NCBI GenBank assembly: GCA_036383995.1
Contig: DASVNG010000029.1
Span: 2,351-66,350 of the forward strand
Origin: Pseudoxanthomonas sp.
GTDB lineage: Bacteria > Pseudomonadota > Gammaproteobacteria > Xanthomonadales > Xanthomonadaceae
DNA length: 64,000 nucleotides
Reading direction: 5' to 3'
Position 1 is the first letter of the stretch, and each line of letters opens with the position of its first letter. The notes beneath the pieces were generated by a model. The model saw nothing but the letters and a program-made list of their open reading frames with translations. It ran no database searches and was not told where the DNA came from. This document shows, piece after piece, positions 7,911 through 45,051 of this stretch. The position numbers and the translations under genes were made by a program.

Positions 7911-8005
7911 CGTTTTTCTGGACATGAGGTGTCGTGCGGCTGTAGTGTCGCCACGGTTAGCCTGCCGCACCACCCACACCCACCATTCCTAAAGGGAAGA
8001 AAGAA

Positions 8006-8383
8006 ATGAGTGAATTCGATAACGTGACCGCCCCACCGCCGGCGCCCTCGGGCGAGGCACCGCAGGAAGACAGGACCATCGGGTTGCTTACGCACCTGTC
8101 CGGCATCATCGCCGGTTTCATCGTTCCGCTGATCATCTGGCTGATCAACAAGGACAAGCCGGAAAAATCCTGGCTGACCGACCAGTCCAAGGAAGCGCTC
8201 AATTTCCAGATCACGCTGCTGATCGTGTACGTGATCGGCATCATCCTTTCGGTGATCCTGATCGGCGCGCTGATCAACCTGATCGCCTGGATCGCCTGCA
8301 TCGTCTTCAGCATCATCGCCGGTCTGGCCGCCAACAAGGGCGAAGCCTACCGTTACCCGTTCGCGCTGCGTCTGATCAAGTAA
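8006..8383 (+). CDS. DUF4870-like small inner-membrane protein
   Basis: 125 aa; ATG preceded by agggaaga. Two or three TM helices (LSGIIAGFIVPLIIWLI, ITLLIVYVIGIILSVILIGALINLIAWIACIVFSII) with the KS.L.DQSKEALNFQIT motif typical of DUF4870. Confidence 0.7.
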   Translation: MSEFDNVTAPPPAPSGEAPQEDRTIGLLTHLSGIIAGFIVPLIIWLINKDKPEKSWLTDQSKEALNFQITLLIVYVIGIILSVILIGALINLIAWIACIVFSIIAGLAANKGEAYRYPFALRLIK

Positions 8384-8403
8384 TCCGGAAATACCGTTTC
8401 CGC

Positions 8404-8437
8404 ACGAAGGCCCGGCTAGTCCGGGCCTTCGTCGTTT
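8404..8437 (+). terminator. Stem-loop terminator after the DUF4870 gene
   Basis: Perfect 12-bp stem acgaaggcccgg / ccgggccttcgt with a 5-nt loop, followed by cgttt. The U-tract is short, so it may be weak. Confidence 0.55.
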
Positions 8438-8473
8438 GCGGGGCCCGTATTCACGTTACTTTGCGGCCAGCTC

Positions 8474-9424
8474 TCAGGATCCAGCCTCAGGCTTGCCTGT
8501 TAGGAGGCTCATTTTGTGCAGTGCATCAAGCATCTCGGGAGGTATTGAGTTGTCCTTAGGCCACCCGCGGTGAGAGAAAATCAATTGCCGATCCTTGTAA
8601 AAATAGAATGTTGGTACGCGGGAGAAGTCAATTCCCGGCCATTTTGAGTTGTCGTACGCAATAGCTATCTTTTGCCGAGGAAATTGCCGATTCCAGCTTC
8701 TGATTTCCACAAGGTCAAGCTCTTTGCTTGCCGCGGCAAGCCAAATTGCATTTCCCCTTATAAAAGCATCTCTAACCAGCACATTGCTATCAATAGACTT
8801 CGCCGCCTTATCAGAGGTTCGGCAGCCAGAAACTACAATGATTCTGTAGCGCGCATCCATAGCTATGTTCTGCAATGAAAGCTCGTCCTCGTTAGTAGAC
8901 AGAAAAAGCGCAGCAGGGCCGTCAGCGGCCAACTGAGAATCGGAGCTCAGACGAGGAACTACAAGACGACCGTCCACGAATTCGTTAGCTCGTAGCGCAC
9001 GCGCTTGTTCCCATTGCCTGGATGCTATAAGAGACTTGAGAATATCGAGCGTTTCACCGTGCCGCTCTACCCCCCTTCGCCTAAGTTCCGCGTAGGTAAC
9101 TTGCATCGAAGAAAGGTAAAGCTGCGTATCTTTATCACCATAAGTCAGAACGTAGTTGTAGACCAATTCTGCCGCACTGAAGATCGCCCTAAGGTCGTTG
9201 GTTTCAACTGTGCCTGGGTTTTGTATCGACGAGGATGTTTGTGAAAAAACATCCTTCAATCTCTGGAGTTTTGTCTCGTTGCTATCTTCCCTTGCTTTAC
9301 TGATGTCTATTAGCTCGGCAAGAGCCAGTTGAATTTGAGAGAGATCTGAAGCGAATCCATTGTTCGATATGGAGCAAAACATGACAAGCAGAAAGAAGAT
9401 CGGTATCCGAGTTCGCGCGCGCAT
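8474..9424 (-). CDS. Secreted hypothetical protein with C-terminal thioredoxin-fold-like domain (CxxS variant); low-GC islet gene
   Basis: 316 aa from ATG 9424 (GTG 9433 alternative). Signal peptide MRARTRIPIFFLLVMFCSISNNGFA. YRIIVVSGCRTSDKAAKSI (beta1 then C-R-T-S) and RVPTFYFYKDRQLIFSHRGW (cis-Pro loop plus strand) fit a thioredoxin fold. A long ORF in ~42% GC DNA is unlikely to arise by chance. Confidence 0.65.
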   Translation of the reverse strand: MRARTRIPIFFLLVMFCSISNNGFASDLSQIQLALAELIDISKAREDSNETKLQRLKDVFSQTSSSIQNPGTVETNDLRAIFSAAELVYNYVLTYGDKDTQLYLSSMQVTYAELRRRGVERHGETLDILKSLIASRQWEQARALRANEFVDGRLVVPRLSSDSQLAADGPAALFLSTNEDELSLQNIAMDARYRIIVVSGCRTSDKAAKSIDSNVLVRDAFIRGNAIWLAAASKELDLVEIRSWNRQFPRQKIAIAYDNSKWPGIDFSRVPTFYFYKDRQLIFSHRGWPKDNSIPPEMLDALHKMSLLTGKPEAGS

Positions 9425-9456
9425 AGTAGCCACAACTTGGTAAGAATTGAGTGGAA

Positions 9457-9486
9457 CCCACTTAAGTAGTCTTGCACTTAAGTGGG
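9457..9486. promoter_or_regulatory. Perfect 11-bp inverted repeat between the two islet genes
   Basis: cccacttaagt - agtcttgc - acttaagtggg. Each half contains CTTAAG. Located 29 nt downstream of the 183-aa gene stop and 33 nt upstream of the 316-aa gene ATG. Confidence 0.5.
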
Positions 9487-9514
9487 GCCACTAGCAATTG
9501 ACAGCTATGATTCG

Positions 9515-10066
9515 TTACTTGCACTTCGCATTACAAGTGCTCCCGTACTCGTAAGTGCACCAGCTATCCTGCCCGTCCACCGTGCAATAGGCGTTCTGAA
9601 CAGGTGGCTCTTCCGTAGTGTTTTCTCCCCCGCCCCCCATTGCTGACATGAAAAGAATGGACTTCTCAGTCGGGTTCTTGGCTTTGAGTCCGGGTATTGA
9701 GGTCAAGTAACGCTGTTGCCCAAATAGGGAAAAAATCGCATATAGGTCGGTCGTGCTTGCTGAATCAAGACCAAGATATGAATAGGAAGCGAGGCCGTGG
9801 CGCGTAAATACCAGGCTCTTCAAGAACTTGTCTCGTAGTTTCGGCGGTAGCTTGTTAAGTGGTGAATCTGGTGTGGTGCGTAGGTAGCGCTCCAGATCCG
9901 ATTTCGATTTTATCGGGGCAGTCGCTTGATCGATTTCGATCTGGGTGGCATTCATTTCGCGAACTAGATCGATCCCGCTGCCCTTCTGAATGCTGGCGTC
10001 TTGAGCGTGGACCGCATGGCTGGCAACGCAGAGCGCCAATGCAAAAGCTGAGAAGATAATTTTCAT
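9515..10066 (-). CDS. Secreted hypothetical protein with Gly-linker and 4-Cys C-terminal tail; low-GC islet gene
   Basis: 183 aa from ATG 10066, with an AAGGA Shine-Dalgarno 5-9 nt upstream. Signal peptide MKIIFSAFALALCVASHAVHA. C-terminus is ...MGGGGENTTEEPPVQNAYCTVDGQDSWCTYEYGSTCNAKCK. Confidence 0.65.
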   Translation of the reverse strand: MKIIFSAFALALCVASHAVHAQDASIQKGSGIDLVREMNATQIEIDQATAPIKSKSDLERYLRTTPDSPLNKLPPKLRDKFLKSLVFTRHGLASYSYLGLDSASTTDLYAIFSLFGQQRYLTSIPGLKAKNPTEKSILFMSAMGGGGENTTEEPPVQNAYCTVDGQDSWCTYEYGSTCNAKCK

Positions 10067-39948: not shown

Positions 39949-39978
39949 ATTATAGCGGGCGGGCGCTCCAGGACGCAA
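39949..39978 (-). promoter_or_regulatory. Candidate sigma70 promoter for rpsB-tsf
   Basis: On the minus strand: TTGCGT (39978-39973), 18-nt spacer, TATAAT (39954-39949). This implies a ~230-nt 5' leader before the rpsB ATG. Confidence 0.4.
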
Positions 39979-40011
39979 ATTGCCCCCACGCCTGTGACCA
40001 GGGCTGCGGCC

Positions 40012-41997
40012 CTAACGCTGCCGGCGCGCGCCGATGTCCACCCGCGCAGCTTGCCGTACCACCACCTGGATCACGCGCTGGGCAGTTGCGTCGTCGATGT
40101 ACCAGGGCAAGGGCAGGTTGTCGGGCACCACGGTCACCCGGTGAGCGCCCGCGGCGACCCGGGGAAACTCGAAATTGCCCAGGCTGTCGGTGCGCGCGGC
40201 GTAGCGGCCGTCCAGCAGCACGGTGACGTTGGCGGCGGGCTGTTCGGAGGCGGCGCGAACACCATCGCCGTTATCGTCCAGGAACAGGCTTCCGACGACC
40301 GAACCGGTAGGGCCGCTGGAGGCGCCGCCCAGCACCGCCTGTGGCCGCCCGGCGCTGCGTTCATAGCGCAGGCTCAGGAATACGGAACGGTCGCGCGGCA
40401 GGGAGATGAAAGGAGTTTCGGTGACCAGCGGATCCAGGACGAAGGGAGAACGTTGCGATCCCGTACTCTGATAAAGCGCTGCGTTCACCGACCAGCGCGG
40501 GGTCATGCGCCAGTTCACGCCCAGGTTGAAATCGGTGCCCCGGACCGCGCCATCGCCGTCGCCATGGGTCCATCGCGCGCTGCCGTCGATCGACAATCTA
40601 TTGCTGAGATCGCGTCCGCCGTACATCGAAACGGTGGCCGCGCGGGTCGGCTCATCCTGGTCTTCGTATCGCAGTTCGCCATAGGCCAGCGAAACCGAAA
40701 GGCGTGCGCCTTGTTGCAGCGGCAGCGCCTGGTCCACGCTGACCTGCCAACTGTCCGCCTCGCCGTCGGCGCCGGCCTGGTCCACTTGCACGCGGGTTTG
40801 ACCCCAGGCGGTGCTTTTGTCCAGGAACAACTGCACGCTGTGCGCAGTGGTGGTGGAATGGCGCAGGTTGAGGCTGGCACCGTAGCCCAGAGTGCTGTTG
40901 GCCTGGTATCGCGCGAATCCGGTGGCGTAAGTGCCGTCGAAACCGGCGCCGGAGATGGACTCGATGCGATCCACGCTGGCGTTCCAGATCCAGCGCGCGT
41001 ACTGGTAGGCGATACGGTAGTAGCCGCCCTGGATGTCGTTGTTGATCGGCAGCGCGCCCCAGGAAAGATCCGGCTGCAGGCGATAGCCGCCGTAGTTGTG
41101 GGTATAGCGTCCGCGCCGCGAGCTGGCGTCGACCCATGCGCCAGCGGCGTCGCCGATGTCGCTTTCGCTGGCCAGTACGTTCAGTTGCACGCCGTCGCGT
41201 TCGCCTTGCCAGGCGGTAGCGGCATAGAGCGCTTGGGTGTCGCCTTGTTCGAACACCGCTTCGCCACGGTCGTCGGGCACGATCCGGCCATGCGTGCCCA
41301 GGAACGAAGCGGCGCCGCTCCATTGCGGAGCCCATCGCCATTGCGCACCCAATGACGCGGCTTCGCCATCGGCCAGTTCGAAGCCGACCATGCGGGTACC
41401 GTTGTACAACCCGGCGCGGCCGAAGGAGCCTTGCAGCAACAGCCCGCGCCGGTCGTCCTGCCACTCGCTGCTGACGCCGGCGAAGGCCACTGTCGGCAGA
41501 AAGAAGCGGTATTGGCTGCGCTGCATGGGCGTGGAGGGCGTGTTCAACACGCCAAGTCCATTGTTCACCCGCCAGCCGCCGTCCAGGTACAGATCGCGTT
41601 GCCACAGCGTGGCTGCGCCGTCGAGTCCGCCCTGGCGGCCCTGCAGTCCGTCGTAGCGCCTGCGGTCGCTGTCGAACAGGGTGGCGTCGAGCGAGAACGC
41701 ACCCCAGGAGTCGGTTTCCCAATAGCCGCCCGCGGCGATGCCGTGTTCGTCGTAGTGGTCGTCGCCGCGCTCGTTGCGGCTGGCCAGCAGTTCCACGTGC
41801 AAAGAACGCGGCAGGCCGCTGCTGTCCTCTTCGGCATCATGGTCAGGCGGCAACGCCTGCAGGTTCTGCGGCGCGATGATCCGGTCGCGGTACGACGGAG
41901 CCGCCTCGGTCTCCTGTGCGCCGGCGTTGCGCATCGCCAGAATGCCGGCGATGCCCAGGGCGAGCGCCAGGCGCGGATGGGCGTTTCGCGAAATCAT
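40012..41997 (-). CDS. Secreted 661-aa outer-membrane beta-barrel candidate with C-terminal carboxypeptidase-regulatory-like/Ig-like domain (cluster gene E)
   Basis: ATG 41997 overlaps the gene D stop (ATGA). Signal peptide MISRNAHPRLALALGIAGILAMRNAGA. Long run of alternating aromatic/Gly beta-strand sequence (YGGYRLQPDLSWG, GGYYRIAYQYARWIW, FNLGVNWRMTPRWSVNAALY). C-terminal ~90 aa is GSLFLDDNGDGVRAASEQPAANVTVLLDGRYAARTDSLGNFEFPRVAAGAHRVTVV. Confidence 0.6.
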   Translation of the reverse strand: MISRNAHPRLALALGIAGILAMRNAGAQETEAAPSYRDRIIAPQNLQALPPDHDAEEDSSGLPRSLHVELLASRNERGDDHYDEHGIAAGGYWETDSWGAFSLDATLFDSDRRRYDGLQGRQGGLDGAATLWQRDLYLDGGWRVNNGLGVLNTPSTPMQRSQYRFFLPTVAFAGVSSEWQDDRRGLLLQGSFGRAGLYNGTRMVGFELADGEAASLGAQWRWAPQWSGAASFLGTHGRIVPDDRGEAVFEQGDTQALYAATAWQGERDGVQLNVLASESDIGDAAGAWVDASSRRGRYTHNYGGYRLQPDLSWGALPINNDIQGGYYRIAYQYARWIWNASVDRIESISGAGFDGTYATGFARYQANSTLGYGASLNLRHSTTTAHSVQLFLDKSTAWGQTRVQVDQAGADGEADSWQVSVDQALPLQQGARLSVSLAYGELRYEDQDEPTRAATVSMYGGRDLSNRLSIDGSARWTHGDGDGAVRGTDFNLGVNWRMTPRWSVNAALYQSTGSQRSPFVLDPLVTETPFISLPRDRSVFLSLRYERSAGRPQAVLGGASSGPTGSVVGSLFLDDNGDGVRAASEQPAANVTVLLDGRYAARTDSLGNFEFPRVAAGAHRVTVVPDNLPLPWYIDDATAQRVIQVVVRQAARVDIGARRQR

Positions 41998-42797
41998 CGG
42001 GACAGCGTGGTCTCGATGTCCAGATGCTGCTTGCCCCAATCCAGGCGGCCCTTCAGCTGCACGGGATAGGCCGGCGCCGGCGGGGGGGCGTTCTCGCTGT
42101 CGCCTTGCGGAGTGAGCGGGATATCGCGGGTTTCGCCGGGCAGGATGGGAAGGGTCGAAGGCGCGAACGCATAGGTCTTGCCACTGCCGTCCTTGCCATC
42201 GACGAAACCTTGCAGACGCGCATGCGCGTTGCCGGCATTGCGTACCAACAGCACCGGCACCAGTTGGCCATCGATGGTCTGCAGTTTCTGTCCGGCGATC
42301 GAAAGCTGTGGGGCGGCATCGCCCAGGGTGAGGTAGACGATGACGCCGATGCGGCCGGAGACCGGTATGGCCACGCCACCGGCGACGTTTTCGGGATCGC
42401 TCTCGATCATGATCGCGAAACGGCATTCGCCGCTGGGCGCATCGGCCGGCACTGCGACTTCGAAGCGGTAACGTTTCTTGGCGTTAGGGCCCATGTTCAG
42501 TTCGCCCGCTTCCACCCCGACCCAAGGGCGGCAACTGCCCGGCGCCAGGGCTTCGGAGAACTGCACGGTGTTGTCCGATTGCAGTGTCCAGTCCGCCGTT
42601 TTCACGGTGTAGTGGGCGGCCTTGTCGGAAACGTTGGTGATTTCGATGACGTCGCGGTAGGTTTCGCCGGCCTTGGCGTTGTCTTCGATGCGCGGTGGCG
42701 AAACCAAAGCGGAGAACCCTTGTGCCCAGGCAAAGCCGGGGGCTAGGCAGCACAGCGCGAAGAAGATTCGGCACAGACGGTGTCGTTGCGTGGACAT
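41994..42797 (-). CDS. Secreted two-domain beta-sandwich protein, periplasmic chaperone candidate (cluster gene D)
   Basis: 267 aa; the ATG 42797 overlaps the gene C stop by 1 nt. Signal peptide MSTQRHRLCRIFFALCCLAPGFAWA. VSPPRIEDNAKAGETYRDVIEITNVSDKAAHYTVKTADW and RIGVIVYLTLG resemble PapD-like or DUF916-like Ig strands. Confidence 0.5.
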   Translation of the reverse strand: MSTQRHRLCRIFFALCCLAPGFAWAQGFSALVSPPRIEDNAKAGETYRDVIEITNVSDKAAHYTVKTADWTLQSDNTVQFSEALAPGSCRPWVGVEAGELNMGPNAKKRYRFEVAVPADAPSGECRFAIMIESDPENVAGGVAIPVSGRIGVIVYLTLGDAAPQLSIAGQKLQTIDGQLVPVLLVRNAGNAHARLQGFVDGKDGSGKTYAFAPSTLPILPGETRDIPLTPQGDSENAPPPAPAYPVQLKGRLDWGKQHLDIETTLSR

Positions 42798-43273
42798 CAG
42801 GGCGTTCCCAAGTCGATTTCGAACGCGAACGCCAGTTGCTCGTCGCGTCGGAGTTTGCTTCCGTCTGCCTGGATCTCCAGGCGCAGGGTGTCTTCGATGG
42901 CGTCGGTCTGGATAGGACCGGCATAGACCAGGGTGCGCTCGCCGCTGCGCAATTCGCCCGGCAACAGGCGGCCCTGCGTGGTCCATCGGGTGGAAACGGC
43001 GGCGGCGGGCCGCATCGGAACGGTCAGGTAGATGCGGGCCTGGCGGCCTTTCCACGGAGAGACGTCCAGACGCACGGCCACGGCGATTTCGCCGGCGACG
43101 TTCGTAGCCAATCGGCCGCGCGCTGCGGTCGGCTGCGGTTTCAGGCGCAAGGTGCCGCCCAGGATCTGGCTGGCGCTGTCGTCGACCCGGTAGGTTTGCG
43201 CAACGGCCGGAGCGATGCACGCTGCCAGAGCGGCGGCGGCAACCGCTGCGAAAAACGACGCGCGCCTGTTCAT
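42797..43273 (-). CDS. Small secreted beta-rich protein (cluster gene C)
   Basis: 158 aa; ATG 43273 overlaps the gene B stop (ATGA). Signal peptide MNRRASFFAAVAAAALAACIAPAVA. No recognisable family. Confidence 0.55.
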   Translation of the reverse strand: MNRRASFFAAVAAAALAACIAPAVAQTYRVDDSASQILGGTLRLKPQPTAARGRLATNVAGEIAVAVRLDVSPWKGRQARIYLTVPMRPAAAVSTRWTTQGRLLPGELRSGERTLVYAGPIQTDAIEDTLRLEIQADGSKLRRDEQLAFAFEIDLGTP

Positions 43274-43905
43274 GGCACCGTCAACGTGTAGGTCACGCGC
43301 CCGTTGTAGACGCCTGCCGCAACCATGTTGTTGTTGCGGTACGAAAATGAGTGGCAGCTTTCGCGCCAGGTATTGACCGGGAAGCTAGCCAGGGTCTGGG
43401 TGCCGCCGGTGAAGGCGCCGGCCGGGAAGGGTTGCGCACCGGTGTCGCCGTTGCCGCTGCTGGTCCAGGTGATCTGCGAGAACGGAATGCTGTCGCCCGC
43501 AACTGTGGTCAGGCTTGCGGGCGCGGTCACGCTCAACGTGCCCGTTCCACCCGACAGCAGCCCGCCGCGATTGAAGCCGCCCACGTAGATTTCCGCCGGA
43601 ACGTTGCAGAACGCAAAGCCGTCGTAGTTGCTGTTGGGCTGGGTTCCGTTCCCGGTCATCGGCAAGGCCGTGCCGTTCCCCAACTGCGCAGCGGGCACGG
43701 TGACCGACACCAGGTTGATGCCGCCGCCAGAGCCAGGCGTCCCATTCGAGCTGAAGGTGCCGGTATAGACGCCGTTGCCGACCCGCAGATAGACCGACGG
43801 GGTCAGCCCATTGGTGATGTTGACGGTGAAGGCTTGGGCCGTCGACGACGTTCCGGCGACGGCCAGCAGGCAGAGCGCCGCAGCGATTGGATTTCTGGCT
43901 TTCAT
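43270..43905 (-). CDS. Secreted Gly/Thr/Asn-rich subunit-like protein B (paralogue of A)
   Basis: 211 aa. Signal peptide MKARNPIAAALCLLAVAGTSSTAQA. Shares the YLRVGNG, INLVSVTVPAAQLGNGT, GDSIPFSQI and C-terminal YNGRVTYTLTVP motifs with gene A. Confidence 0.65.
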   Translation of the reverse strand: MKARNPIAAALCLLAVAGTSSTAQAFTVNITNGLTPSVYLRVGNGVYTGTFSSNGTPGSGGGINLVSVTVPAAQLGNGTALPMTGNGTQPNSNYDGFAFCNVPAEIYVGGFNRGGLLSGGTGTLSVTAPASLTTVAGDSIPFSQITWTSSGNGDTGAQPFPAGAFTGGTQTLASFPVNTWRESCHSFSYRNNNMVAAGVYNGRVTYTLTVP

Positions 43906-43920
43906 GCGGGACTCGGGCAG

Positions 43921-43955
43921 AAAAAAAGGGAGCCGGTTAGCAACCGCCGGCTCCC
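43921..43955 (-). terminator. Rho-independent terminator between cluster genes A and B
   Basis: On the minus strand: gggagccgg - 10-nt loop - ccggctccc, followed by TTTTTTT. It sits 26 nt after the gene A stop and 16 nt before the gene B ATG. Confidence 0.75.
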
Positions 43956-43980
43956 TCCGGACCTTGCGAATACGCAGCGA

Positions 43981-44604
43981 TTACGGCATCGAAGCCGTGT
44001 AGGTGACACGCCCGTTGTTGACGCCGACGCCGCCGTAGGTGCCTGGAGCCGCCACCGCGCCGTTGGCGTAGGTGTAGGTCCAGCGCGCATCGCGGTTCAC
44101 CACTTTGCCGGTGACCGGGGTCAGGGTCAGGGTGCTTGTGGCGCCATCGACCAGGGCCGGGTGCGGCAGCGCCGTGGCCGAGGTCAGGGCGGCCACCGCG
44201 GTGCCGATCTGCCCGTAGGAGATCGTGTCGCCTGCGCCATTGCCCAGCGCGCCCAGGGTGGTGGAGGTGAAGGTGATGTTGCCGTTGTTGCCTACCACCT
44301 TGGCGGTCACGGTGCCATTGCCCACATCGCCCGAGCCGGCGGTAGCGGCCACGGGGGTGCCGTCGCCCAGGTTGGCGGCAGGAACGTTGAACGAAATCAG
44401 GTTGATGGCGGCGTTGGTGGTGAAGTCCGCGCCAGTACCGACGCGCAGGAACAGGATCTTGGGAACGGTGATCTGGAAGTCCAGGCGGGCTTGGGCGGTG
44501 ATCGGGGTGCCGGTACCGGTGGTGTAGGTCGACTCAGCGCTGGCTGCCAGCGGCATCAAAGCCAGGACGGCGGCAGACAGGAGGGCCTTGCTGGAAATGC
44601 GCAT
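43981..44604 (-). CDS. Secreted Gly/Thr/Ala-rich subunit-like protein A (candidate major subunit)
   Basis: 207 aa from ATG 44604, with AAGGA ~10 nt upstream. Signal peptide MRISSKALLSAAVLALMPLAASA. Motifs FLRVGTG, INLISFNVPAANLGDGT, GDTISYGQI and C-terminal NNGRVTYTASMP. The track ORF start at 44826 is an extension. Confidence 0.65.
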   Translation of the reverse strand: MRISSKALLSAAVLALMPLAASAESTYTTGTGTPITAQARLDFQITVPKILFLRVGTGADFTTNAAINLISFNVPAANLGDGTPVAATAGSGDVGNGTVTAKVVGNNGNITFTSTTLGALGNGAGDTISYGQIGTAVAALTSATALPHPALVDGATSTLTLTPVTGKVVNRDARWTYTYANGAVAAPGTYGGVGVNNGRVTYTASMP

Positions 44605-44806
44605 GCTTTCTTGATCCTTAAAAAGGGCGATGGGAAGTAGTGGAAGGGTTGCCAGGCTCAACAATGGGCGTCCGTCTAATCGACGGATCCCAATAAATCC
44701 CTTTAGAATCAGGCTGATGCCGCGTGCGAGTGTGTGTAGGCAGAACTCTTGCCAACCCCGGCTCCCCCCGGCAGATCCTGTCGTCAGCACCCCGGCGGAG
44801 GCTGAT

Positions 44807-44873
44807 GTGAAAGAATTTTCACCCATTAGCGTGGAAACTGTGACTCAAATTTGTTGAAAATGTGACCAGTTTC
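44807..44873. promoter_or_regulatory. AT-rich palindrome/direct-repeat block upstream of cluster gene A (divergent from map)
   Basis: gtgaaa-gaat-tttcac (44807-44822). gaaactg (44834-44840) is inverted to cagtttc (44867-44873). That inverted pair encloses two (c/a)tgtgac repeats at 44838 and 44860. Confidence 0.4.
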
Positions 44874-45051
44874 TCTATTTAAATGTACTAAAGCACTTGC
44901 TCAGCTGAGAACACCGTCACATCGCTGCATGCGGCGATGAGAGTCCTCGGGCTGTCGCTGAATGGCCCGTTAGGGACCCACAACGGCCCCGCAAGCCTTG
45001 CCCATCGGGGGGTTTGTTCAGGAGTAAAGCGAAATCGGCGATAATCCAAGC

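Follow-up and report, generated by a model that had tools for sequence, protein, structure and literature searches.

The DNA considered here (the window) is a stretch of 64,000 nucleotides from Pseudoxanthomonas sp. (GenBank assembly GCA_036383995.1, contig DASVNG010000029.1, positions 2,351 to 66,350 of the forward strand). Its minus strand carries an operon of five genes, here called A to E, all of whose products are predicted to be secreted. A and B are diverged paralogs, and they may well serve as major and minor subunit, respectively, of a surface fiber, assembled with the aid of a chaperone by a donor-strand pathway that has diverged too far from classical chaperone-usher pili for the relation to show in sequence. 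This reading is given a probability of roughly 0.6. The paralogy of A and B, the folds of A and D, synteny, patterns of conservation, covariation, and the insertion of the operon at its present site are shown by the analysis; polymerization, strand exchange, a function of E as a pore, and roles for B and C are inferred. The genes, in the order A-B-C-D-E of the operon, are:

43981-44604, minus strand: gene A, 207 amino acids (open reading frame and translation; ATG at 44604), 23-residue signal peptide; putative major fiber subunit

43270-43905, minus strand: gene B, 211 amino acids, 25-residue signal peptide; diverged paralog of A, putative minor subunit

42797-43273, minus strand: gene C, 158 amino acids, secreted; present in all complete loci

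41994-42797, minus strand: gene D, 267 amino acids, periplasmic, two beta-sandwich domains; putative donor-strand chaperone

40012-41997, minus strand: gene E, 661 amino acids; putative outer-membrane beta-barrel at about residues 65-548

Genes A and B are diverged paralogs

An earlier reading of the window, made from the letters without database searches (the sequence-only reading), had taken A and B for diverged paralogs sharing four motif blocks and a pilin-like C-terminal strand, and had allowed that the similarity might vanish once low-complexity regions were masked. It does not. BLASTP with composition-based statistics finds 32% identity across the mature proteins (E = 7e-11). The Smith-Waterman score of the pair is 164, as against 50.5 ± 8.8 (maximum 99) for 2000 shuffles of B that preserve its composition (z = 12.9). 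When the two families are aligned by hhalign, using profiles built from about 70-94 loci, residues 48-207 of A are matched with residues 35-211 of B at a probability of 99.7% (E = 1.3e-25). Since all three approaches agree, the paralogy is real, and neither composition nor low complexity explains the similarity. The four motif blocks are all present in the translations, are aligned with each other by BLASTP, and are conserved.

Both proteins begin with signal peptides of a typical Sec type. The contrast in cysteines that had been pointed out, two in B and none in A, holds for the mature proteins: C100 and C184 of B are invariant in 68 of 68 relatives (one more cysteine lies in the signal peptide), whereas A has none at all, and its mature part is free of cysteine in 92 of 94 A relatives. 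The C-terminal strand is indeed common to the two, but the exact spacing first given for it is not, since A carries a six-residue insertion relative to B directly ahead of the strand. The common pattern is thus G-x-Y-(insert)-N-G-R-V-T-Y-T. Both proteins are rich in Gly, Thr, Asn, and Ala and have few charges. The sequence-only reading considered this typical of fiber subunits; however, richness in Gly, Thr, and Asn is by itself no evidence for them.

Further paralogs of A and B had been suggested as worth seeking elsewhere in the genome; a search of the organism's own genome found none. Close relatives of A number more than 1400, every one of them named 'hypothetical', and an exhaustive search of databases groups the family into 463 clusters at 50% identity.

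The predicted fold of A and the position of its N-terminal extension

Two elements at the ends of mature A are central to what follows:

44464-44535, minus strand: N-terminal extension of A, residues 24-47 (ESTYTTGTGTPITAQARLDFQITV), a candidate donor strand that ends at the near-invariant Pro48

43984-44010, minus strand: C-terminal strand of A, residues 199-207 (RVTYTASMP), common to B; mature residues 177-182 form the last strand of the model

From an alignment of 104 sequences, AlphaFold2 models mature A as a beta-sandwich, with a predicted local distance difference test score (pLDDT) of 97.3 and a predicted template modeling score (pTM) of 0.86, and not as a complete fold unrelated to the immunoglobulin (Ig) type, such as the beta-helix or lectin that the sequence-only reading had set against its own proposal. 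When the model is compared to PDB by Foldseek, nine of the ten best matches are chaperone-usher pilins (the pilin domain of PapG, FimG, FimA, and FimF), and CS20, PapE, and Csu pilins appear further down the list. Pilin chains crystallized without their own donor strand (3me0_B, 5iqm_A) are among the best matches. The second best is the bundling pilus of Pyrobaculum (7ueg), also a donor-strand structure, with a template modeling (TM) score of 0.28. The ten best matches have E values from 3e-3 to 0.03, probabilities of 0.8-0.99, and TM scores of 0.3-0.43. No WxL chain is found among the top 50, and a library of viral structures yielded nothing meaningful.

The last strand of this confident model is VTYTAS. 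To this extent the claim that the C-terminal segment is a pilin-like last strand is upheld, but the motif is not the classical one of chaperone-usher pilins, with its penultimate Tyr and Gly at position -14; A ends instead in a Pro that is conserved in 83 of 94 A sequences. Residues R199, V200, T201, Y202, T203, and A204 are each kept in at least 88 of the 94.

The other end of the mature protein is still more regular. The motif A37-x-A39-x-L41-x-F43-x-I45-x-V47 (I or V at position 47), followed by P48, alternates strictly between hydrophobic and polar residues and is almost invariant, the family consensus being A-x-A-x-L-x-F-x-I-x-I-P. Column statistics over 94 sequences give hydrophobic fractions of 0.89-1.00 at positions 37, 39, 41, 43, 45, and 47; F43 is present in 91 and P48 in 93 of the sequences. 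The alternating stretch of A originally pointed out, DFQITVPKILFL, has a near-invariant pattern, but it merges two elements: the extension up to Pro48, specific to A, and the first core strand, KILFLRV, that A has in common with B. In the alignment of family profiles, the 24 residues of the extension have no counterpart in B, whose N-terminus offers only the short F26-x-V28-x-I30. The idea that both N-termini act as donor strands thus suits A, with an extension that alternates, is conserved, and covaries in the manner of a G strand, better than it suits B, in which the stretch is much shorter and lacks the conserved LDF motif, leaving a donor role less clear. A much more diverged paralog of 160 amino acids (paralog X), found in some Usitatibacter loci and aligned to A by hhalign at a probability of 99.4% (E = 2e-21), retains both A's N-terminal motif and its C-terminal Pro.

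Covariation was assessed by mean-field direct coupling analysis of 337 A sequences (effective number about 199). The couplings match the strand ladders of the model (e.g., 132-182, 134-180, 136-178, and 140-174). The second and third highest couplings overall involve the extension: Q44-S71 and D42-R199, respectively. Also, R40-I67 and D42-L69 are coupled in a register equal to that of Q44-S71. On the strength of these four couplings, the extension is predicted to run parallel to the segment 67-71, adjoining the start of the C-terminal strand. This would be where an Ig fold has its strand G and where chaperone-usher pili, once assembled, accommodate the donor strand, the covariation reading the same whether the strand is contributed in cis or in trans.

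Gene D resembles donor-strand chaperones in predicted structure

The AlphaFold2 model of D (pLDDT 92.8, pTM 0.84) consists of two beta-sandwich domains. Its best Foldseek match in PDB is WxLIP of Enterococcus faecium (9i25_C and 9i1y; E = 2.5e-9), and next come YadV, CfaA, CsuC, FimC, PapD, Caf1M, DraB, FaeE, EcpB, CupB2, and SfaE (E from 1e-8 to 2e-6). The alignments to chaperone structures extend over both domains (about 240 columns), with TM scores normalized to the target of 0.5-0.6. WxLIP and the chaperones of classical, alternate, and archaic chaperone-usher pili make up most of the top 50 matches. The model clearly gives D the fold of a donor-strand chaperone in two domains, the PapD-like pair of Ig domains by which chaperones of the chaperone-usher pathway are known.

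The similarity does not extend to sequence. With a threshold of E ≤ 0.1, PapD_N and PapD_C (PF00345 and PF02753) match neither D nor a single one of the 66 relatives of D, hhalign relates D to FimC at a probability of 0.3%, and D has no significant match in Pfam or PDB as a single protein or as a profile. The sole PDB match of the D profile is WxLIP, and this is not significant (E = 0.2). PF06030 is weakly matched by 16 of the 66 relatives, all below threshold (best E = 0.0023), and PF11797 by none; D is not a DUF916 plus DUF3324 chaperone (PF06030 plus PF11797) with a C-terminal transmembrane helix. A few relatives of D go by the names 'P pilus assembly chaperone PapD' or 'fimbrial chaperone' in IMG/UniRef.

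One segment of D is of particular interest:

42351-42386, minus strand: loop of D, residues 138-149 (V-x-x-x-V-x-I-P-V-x-G-R), ahead of the last strand of domain 1; candidate chaperone donor segment

Mature residues 111-120 are the only stretch of the model with low confidence (pLDDT 58). Positions V138, V142, I144, and V146 of the loop are hydrophobic in a fraction of 0.80-1.00 of the sequences; P145 is found in 68, G148 in 67, and R149 in all of 69 sequences, and a long hydrophobic strand follows R149. FimC has an equal layout, alternating hydrophobic residues and then Arg, in TLQLAIISRIKLYYRP, a resemblance of position only. The cleft residues R8 and K112 of PapD anchor the C-terminus of the subunit. 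The invariant R36 and R149 of D (R11 and R124 of the mature protein) lie at comparable places in the sequence, R36 being near the N-terminus as R8 is in FimC and PapD; this resemblance, too, is purely positional.

Genes E and C

The usher family PF00577 comprises 24-strand barrels with a plug, an N-terminal domain, and two C-terminal domains. A crude periodicity scan of E finds about 20-24 amphipathic segments within residues 65-548, and the putative barrel would close with FLSLRYE, after which comes a single domain:

40033-40305, minus strand: Ig-like C-terminal domain of E, about residues 565-655, recognized by SdrD_B/CarboxypepD_reg and PDB matches

In PDB this domain matches the B domains of SdrD and UafA. 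E itself matches CarboxypepD_reg/SdrD_B of Pfam at its C-terminus below threshold, but one of these two domains is found in 56 of 57 relatives, and OMP_b-brl is found in 5. The database name of these relatives is simply 'carboxypeptidase-like regulatory domain protein'. The Usher profile (PF00577) matches nothing in E, in its 57 relatives, or in the whole genome, and the hhalign probability of a relationship to FimD is 0.1%. E is 661 amino acids long compared to 878 for FimD; about 200 amino acids shorter than ushers, it has no recognizable plug, N-terminal domain, or second C-terminal domain. E may be a barrel of the usher kind in shortened form or else a pore of another type, and a structural relation to ushers is possible.

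In C, the motif YRVDDS, as (T)YRVDDS, is conserved at the very start of the mature protein, just past the point where the signal peptide is cleaved, and this holds for nearly all of the roughly 60 relatives. Perhaps this N-terminus is functional, in which case it could be another donor-type element or a plug. C was considered as a lipoprotein and as a third paralog. The first was ruled out by the lack of conservation of the apparent lipobox Cys, and the second by hhalign, with a probability below 7%; at the level of profiles C resembles none of the other four proteins.

Apart from the match below threshold at the C-terminus of E, none of the five proteins has a significant match in Pfam or NCBIfam, and scans with whole-family alignments agree. 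Sequence searches of PDB, with single proteins and with profiles, return only the C-terminal domain of E and the insignificant match of D to WxLIP.

Operon structure and insertion

The operon lies within a block of DNA whose ends can be placed precisely:

39960-45028: inserted block of 5.07 kb, comprising the operon and a 424-bp upstream region, between rpsB and map

43921-43955, minus strand: GC-rich hairpin and run of seven T's within the 75-nt gap between A and B; putative intrinsic terminator or attenuator

In two genomes of the same genus the operon is missing, and rpsB and map are direct neighbors, with only 48 bp at the site. Homology to the empty site stops at 39959 and restarts at 45029, so that the block stands in place of the 48 bp. 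The cassette is therefore an acquired insertion. The intergenic region that received it lies between rpsB and map in divergent orientation. Elsewhere in the window, positions 8001-10000 have a GC fraction of 0.51, as compared to about 0.65 for the rest, and may be another acquired segment.

The gap between A and B folds with -30.2 kcal/mol (ViennaRNA) into a GC stem of 12 bp followed by TTTTTTT. Of 49 distinct A-B gaps from related loci, 47 have a GC hairpin (7 bp or more) after the last copy of A, and in 23 of these there is a T-rich tail. The gap, 75 nt here, has a median of 83 nt across loci, while the B-C, C-D, and D-E junctions overlap by 4, 1, and 4 nt. In three Lysobacter loci (L013, L025, and L037), the gap has grown to 108-268 nt through tandem GC-rich palindromic units (CCCGCGGTACGCGGGAACGGCCCCGGCTCGA-like) with the look of repetitive extragenic palindromes.

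Distribution of the cassette

A scan of one genome per species, with an alignment of 17 A sequences as the query, found the cassette in at least 278 species genomes. From these, 79 loci were taken, from Pseudoxanthomonas (94% identity), Lysobacter, Luteimonas, Arenimonas, Thermomonas, Dokdonella, Usitatibacter and other Burkholderiales, and Steroidobacteraceae. About 60 of them have enough flanking sequence to be judged, and in these the same five genes are found together, as A(1-3 copies)-B-C-D-E, across two proteobacterial classes, in Xanthomonadales, Burkholderiales, and Steroidobacteraceae. A subset from Burkholderiales (L032, L044, L045, L048, L049, L051, L056, L059, and L061) has the order C-D-E-A-B, and in L055 the genes C-D-E lie on the opposite strand. 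In the rearranged loci, C, D, and E retain only about 30-45% identity, and still the five genes are together. The distribution is patchy: when 301 genomes of the order were sampled, 5 had the cassette, and the two genomes of the same genus are without it.

In 42 of 51 loci, A is better conserved than any of the other four proteins. The median identity is 67% for A, 59% for B, 55% for D, 45% for C, and 41% for E, and the A proteins of Pseudoxanthomonas and Usitatibacter are about 74% identical.

Some loci of Usitatibacter and Burkholderiales have a third, strongly diverged A-type paralog (the paralog X mentioned above), of about 150-160 amino acids, in convergent orientation just past E. It is found at L001:12536-13018 (minus strand) and likewise, as weak matches to A, in L003, L018, L031, L051, and L061, and it is absent from the window. 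It keeps the N-terminal motif S-L-D-F-x-F-x-V-P and the C-terminal Pro.

A search of full-text literature, whose coverage of journals is incomplete, found no paper on this family.

Discussion

According to the model favored here, the five proteins would be exported by the Sec pathway. In the periplasm, D would cap each subunit, inserting the alternating hydrophobic segment ahead of Arg149 into the groove of the subunit. At the barrel formed by E, the chaperone would be displaced by the N-terminal extension (A-x-A-x-L-x-F-x-I-x-I-P) of the next A, and subunits linked in this way would be threaded through E as a fiber. B, with the same core and C-terminal strand but with a different, short N-terminus and a conserved pair of cysteines, would enter the fiber only rarely, serving either as its tip/initiator or as its terminator. 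C would be an accessory protein, and the hairpin after A would keep A in excess over B through E.

What speaks for the model is the convergence of independent lines: a fold of A that is weakly pilin-like, a D that is clearly chaperone-like and whose alternating loop is flexible, a strictly conserved set of five genes that includes an outer-membrane barrel and a pair of major and minor paralogs, a variable copy number of A with an attenuator after it, and an invariant alternating extension lying beside the C-terminal strand. The gene dosage is also what one might expect of a polymer, with variable copies of A, a conserved hairpin after them, and translational coupling of B through E. Finally, the organism's genome has no classical usher gene and, by a scan of the whole genome with PF00345, no PapD_N gene, so there is no competing system.

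Several observations weigh against a donor-strand fiber. The match of A to pilins is weak (best E = 2.9e-3, with TM scores of 0.33/0.43 against PDB). The N-terminal 27 residues of A are ordered in the model of the monomer (pLDDT 90-94) and yet form no regular strand. Since they are so well ordered, A may be a complete fold that does not polymerize, with its extension docked in cis. D matches, besides chaperones, other proteins with a PapD-like fold (MSP, CEP192, HYDIN, and RbmA). E is unrelated to ushers at the level of sequence, whether judged by Pfam or by hhalign against FimD. And A is more conserved than the chaperone or the pore, the opposite of what is found in classical adhesive pili, though tight packing constraints or recent horizontal spread could account for this.

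The chief rival takes up the second of these points. A and B may be beta-sandwich proteins of the surface or medium, monomeric or associating only laterally, e.g., an adhesin, a lectin-like coat, or a surface layer, that D escorts and E exports, the extension packing on its own subunit. This is distinctly less probable than a fiber, but it accommodates a confident monomer model that includes the extension (which is no free or disordered arm), the weakness of A's pilin matches, and covariation that is equally compatible with docking in cis, and the very high conservation of A would suit specific contacts to a ligand or within a lattice. Against this must be set the identity of A's best fold matches, which are specifically donor-strand pilins, including the chains 3me0_B and 5iqm_A. 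The chaperone fold of D and its flexible alternating loop are hallmarks of donor-strand complementation, and major and minor paralogs, an attenuator, and extra copies of A are typical of the subunits of polymers.

A system of the envelope that makes no fiber at all, for example one for uptake or sensing, is rather improbable. In such a system E would be a substrate channel, D a periplasmic protein of generic Ig fold for binding or scaffolding, and A and B binding proteins located in the periplasm or associated with the outer membrane. CarboxypepD_reg domains, present in relatives of E, occur also in TonB-dependent receptors (SusC-type), PapD-like and Ig-like folds are generic (the matches of D to non-chaperones being a case in point), and no component has a family assignment. 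However, the conserved set of five genes comes without a TonB box, a plug domain, an ABC or inner-membrane component, or a regulator, and it is hard to ascribe to chance that neighboring genes match the folds of pilins and of chaperones. Assembly of amyloid by nucleation and precipitation, as in curli or Fap (with A as the main subunit of the amyloid, nucleated by B, with C and D acting in the periplasm against aggregation, and with E as the secretion channel), is very unlikely: the logic of the genes does resemble that of csgBA-csgC/E/F/G and fapA-F, in which two secreted subunits are paralogs and are accompanied by small proteins of the periplasm and a channel in the outer membrane, and the composition (Gly/Thr/Asn/Ala-rich, low in charge) would fit, but A is modeled as a globular beta-sandwich (pLDDT 97) rather than a stack of imperfect repeats, its translation shows no internal repeats, none of the proteins is similar in Pfam to Curlin_rpt, CsgG, FapF, or related families, and the fold of D matches donor-strand chaperones and not CsgC or CsgE.

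If the cassette does encode a donor-strand fiber, it is instructive to compare it with those already described. With chaperone-usher pili (Fim/Pap, CFA/I, and Csu/CupE) it has in common the periplasmic chaperone fold with two Ig domains (D), a subunit modeled as a weakly pilin-like beta-sandwich whose N-terminal extension alternates (A), putative major and minor subunits that are paralogs, a hairpin that follows the gene for the former, and (putatively) an outer-membrane barrel joined to a periplasmic C-terminal beta-sandwich domain (E). It differs in having no sequence match to the PapD_N, Usher, Fimbrial, or SCPU families, in possessing the additional conserved small protein C, and in that the pilin is its most conserved part instead of its least. 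Membership in the classical chaperone-usher families was considered and rejected at the level of sequence, by the family scans and by hhalign, which found no relation to FimA, FimC, or FimD of E. coli.

The second comparison is with the WxL/Elr pilus of Gram-positive bacteria, whose chaperones (DUF916/DUF3324) include the best structural match of D. WxLIP/ElrE-type proteins have recently been shown to be membrane-anchored donor-strand chaperones of this pilus; they are reported to belong to a sequence family disjoint from that of the PapD chaperones, the system is reported to be confined to Bacillota, and its donor strands have the consensus small-x-small-x-aliphatic-x-Phe (bioRxiv 10.64898/2026.10.17.759780). 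The motif in the extension of A resembles this consensus. Unlike WxLIP, D ends without a hydrophobic C-terminal helix that would anchor it to the membrane, as read from its sequence, and unlike the hosts of the WxL/Elr pilus, the present host is diderm and its operon includes a putative outer-membrane barrel. There is no match to the WxL domain in A, B, C, or 104 relatives of A, and the five conserved genes include neither an LPxTG protein nor a sortase.

Fibers still more distant may also be relevant. The Pam pili of bacteria of the Candidate Phyla Radiation (CPR) consist of Ig-like subunits joined by donor strands, encoded in an operon with putative chaperones (PMC13278184). They and the archaeal bundling pili and threads resemble the present cassette in combining donor-strand Ig-like subunits with little or no similarity in sequence to chaperone-usher pilins, and the archaeal bundling pilus 7ueg is, as noted, a match to the fold of A, albeit a weak one. 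However, these fibers belong to other phyla and other types of envelope, no families are shared, and the archaeal fibers assemble without a chaperone.

Since tests of membership in both the chaperone-usher and the WxL/Elr families fail at the level of sequence, the cassette is probably a variant of the donor-strand pilus that lies outside both. One might go further and suppose that the operon represents an independent lineage, the third in diderms, of donor-strand pili guided by a chaperone, having a new family of pilin folds, a barrel (E) that is not an usher, a protein (C) that serves perhaps as a plug or adaptor in trans, and a chaperone (D) between the WxLIP and PapD families. This stronger version is speculative and should be considered doubtful, but if it were true, the placement of D would provide an evolutionary link between two families reported to be disjoint.

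Donor-strand fibers were long regarded as defined by the PapD and usher families. The cassette would join the diverged donor-strand fibers reported in 2026 from Bacillota (WxL/Elr) and from CPR bacteria (Pam). It would represent a system of Proteobacteria missed by the profile databases, with an outer-membrane component that is not an usher, an unusually conserved subunit, and relatives that are nearly all called 'hypothetical'. If the reading is confirmed, all five genes would provide seed alignments for new protein families. Also, because culturable strains of Lysobacter, Luteimonas, and Pseudoxanthomonas carry the cassette, it would offer a tractable model for how assembly by strand exchange can be coupled to a different pore.

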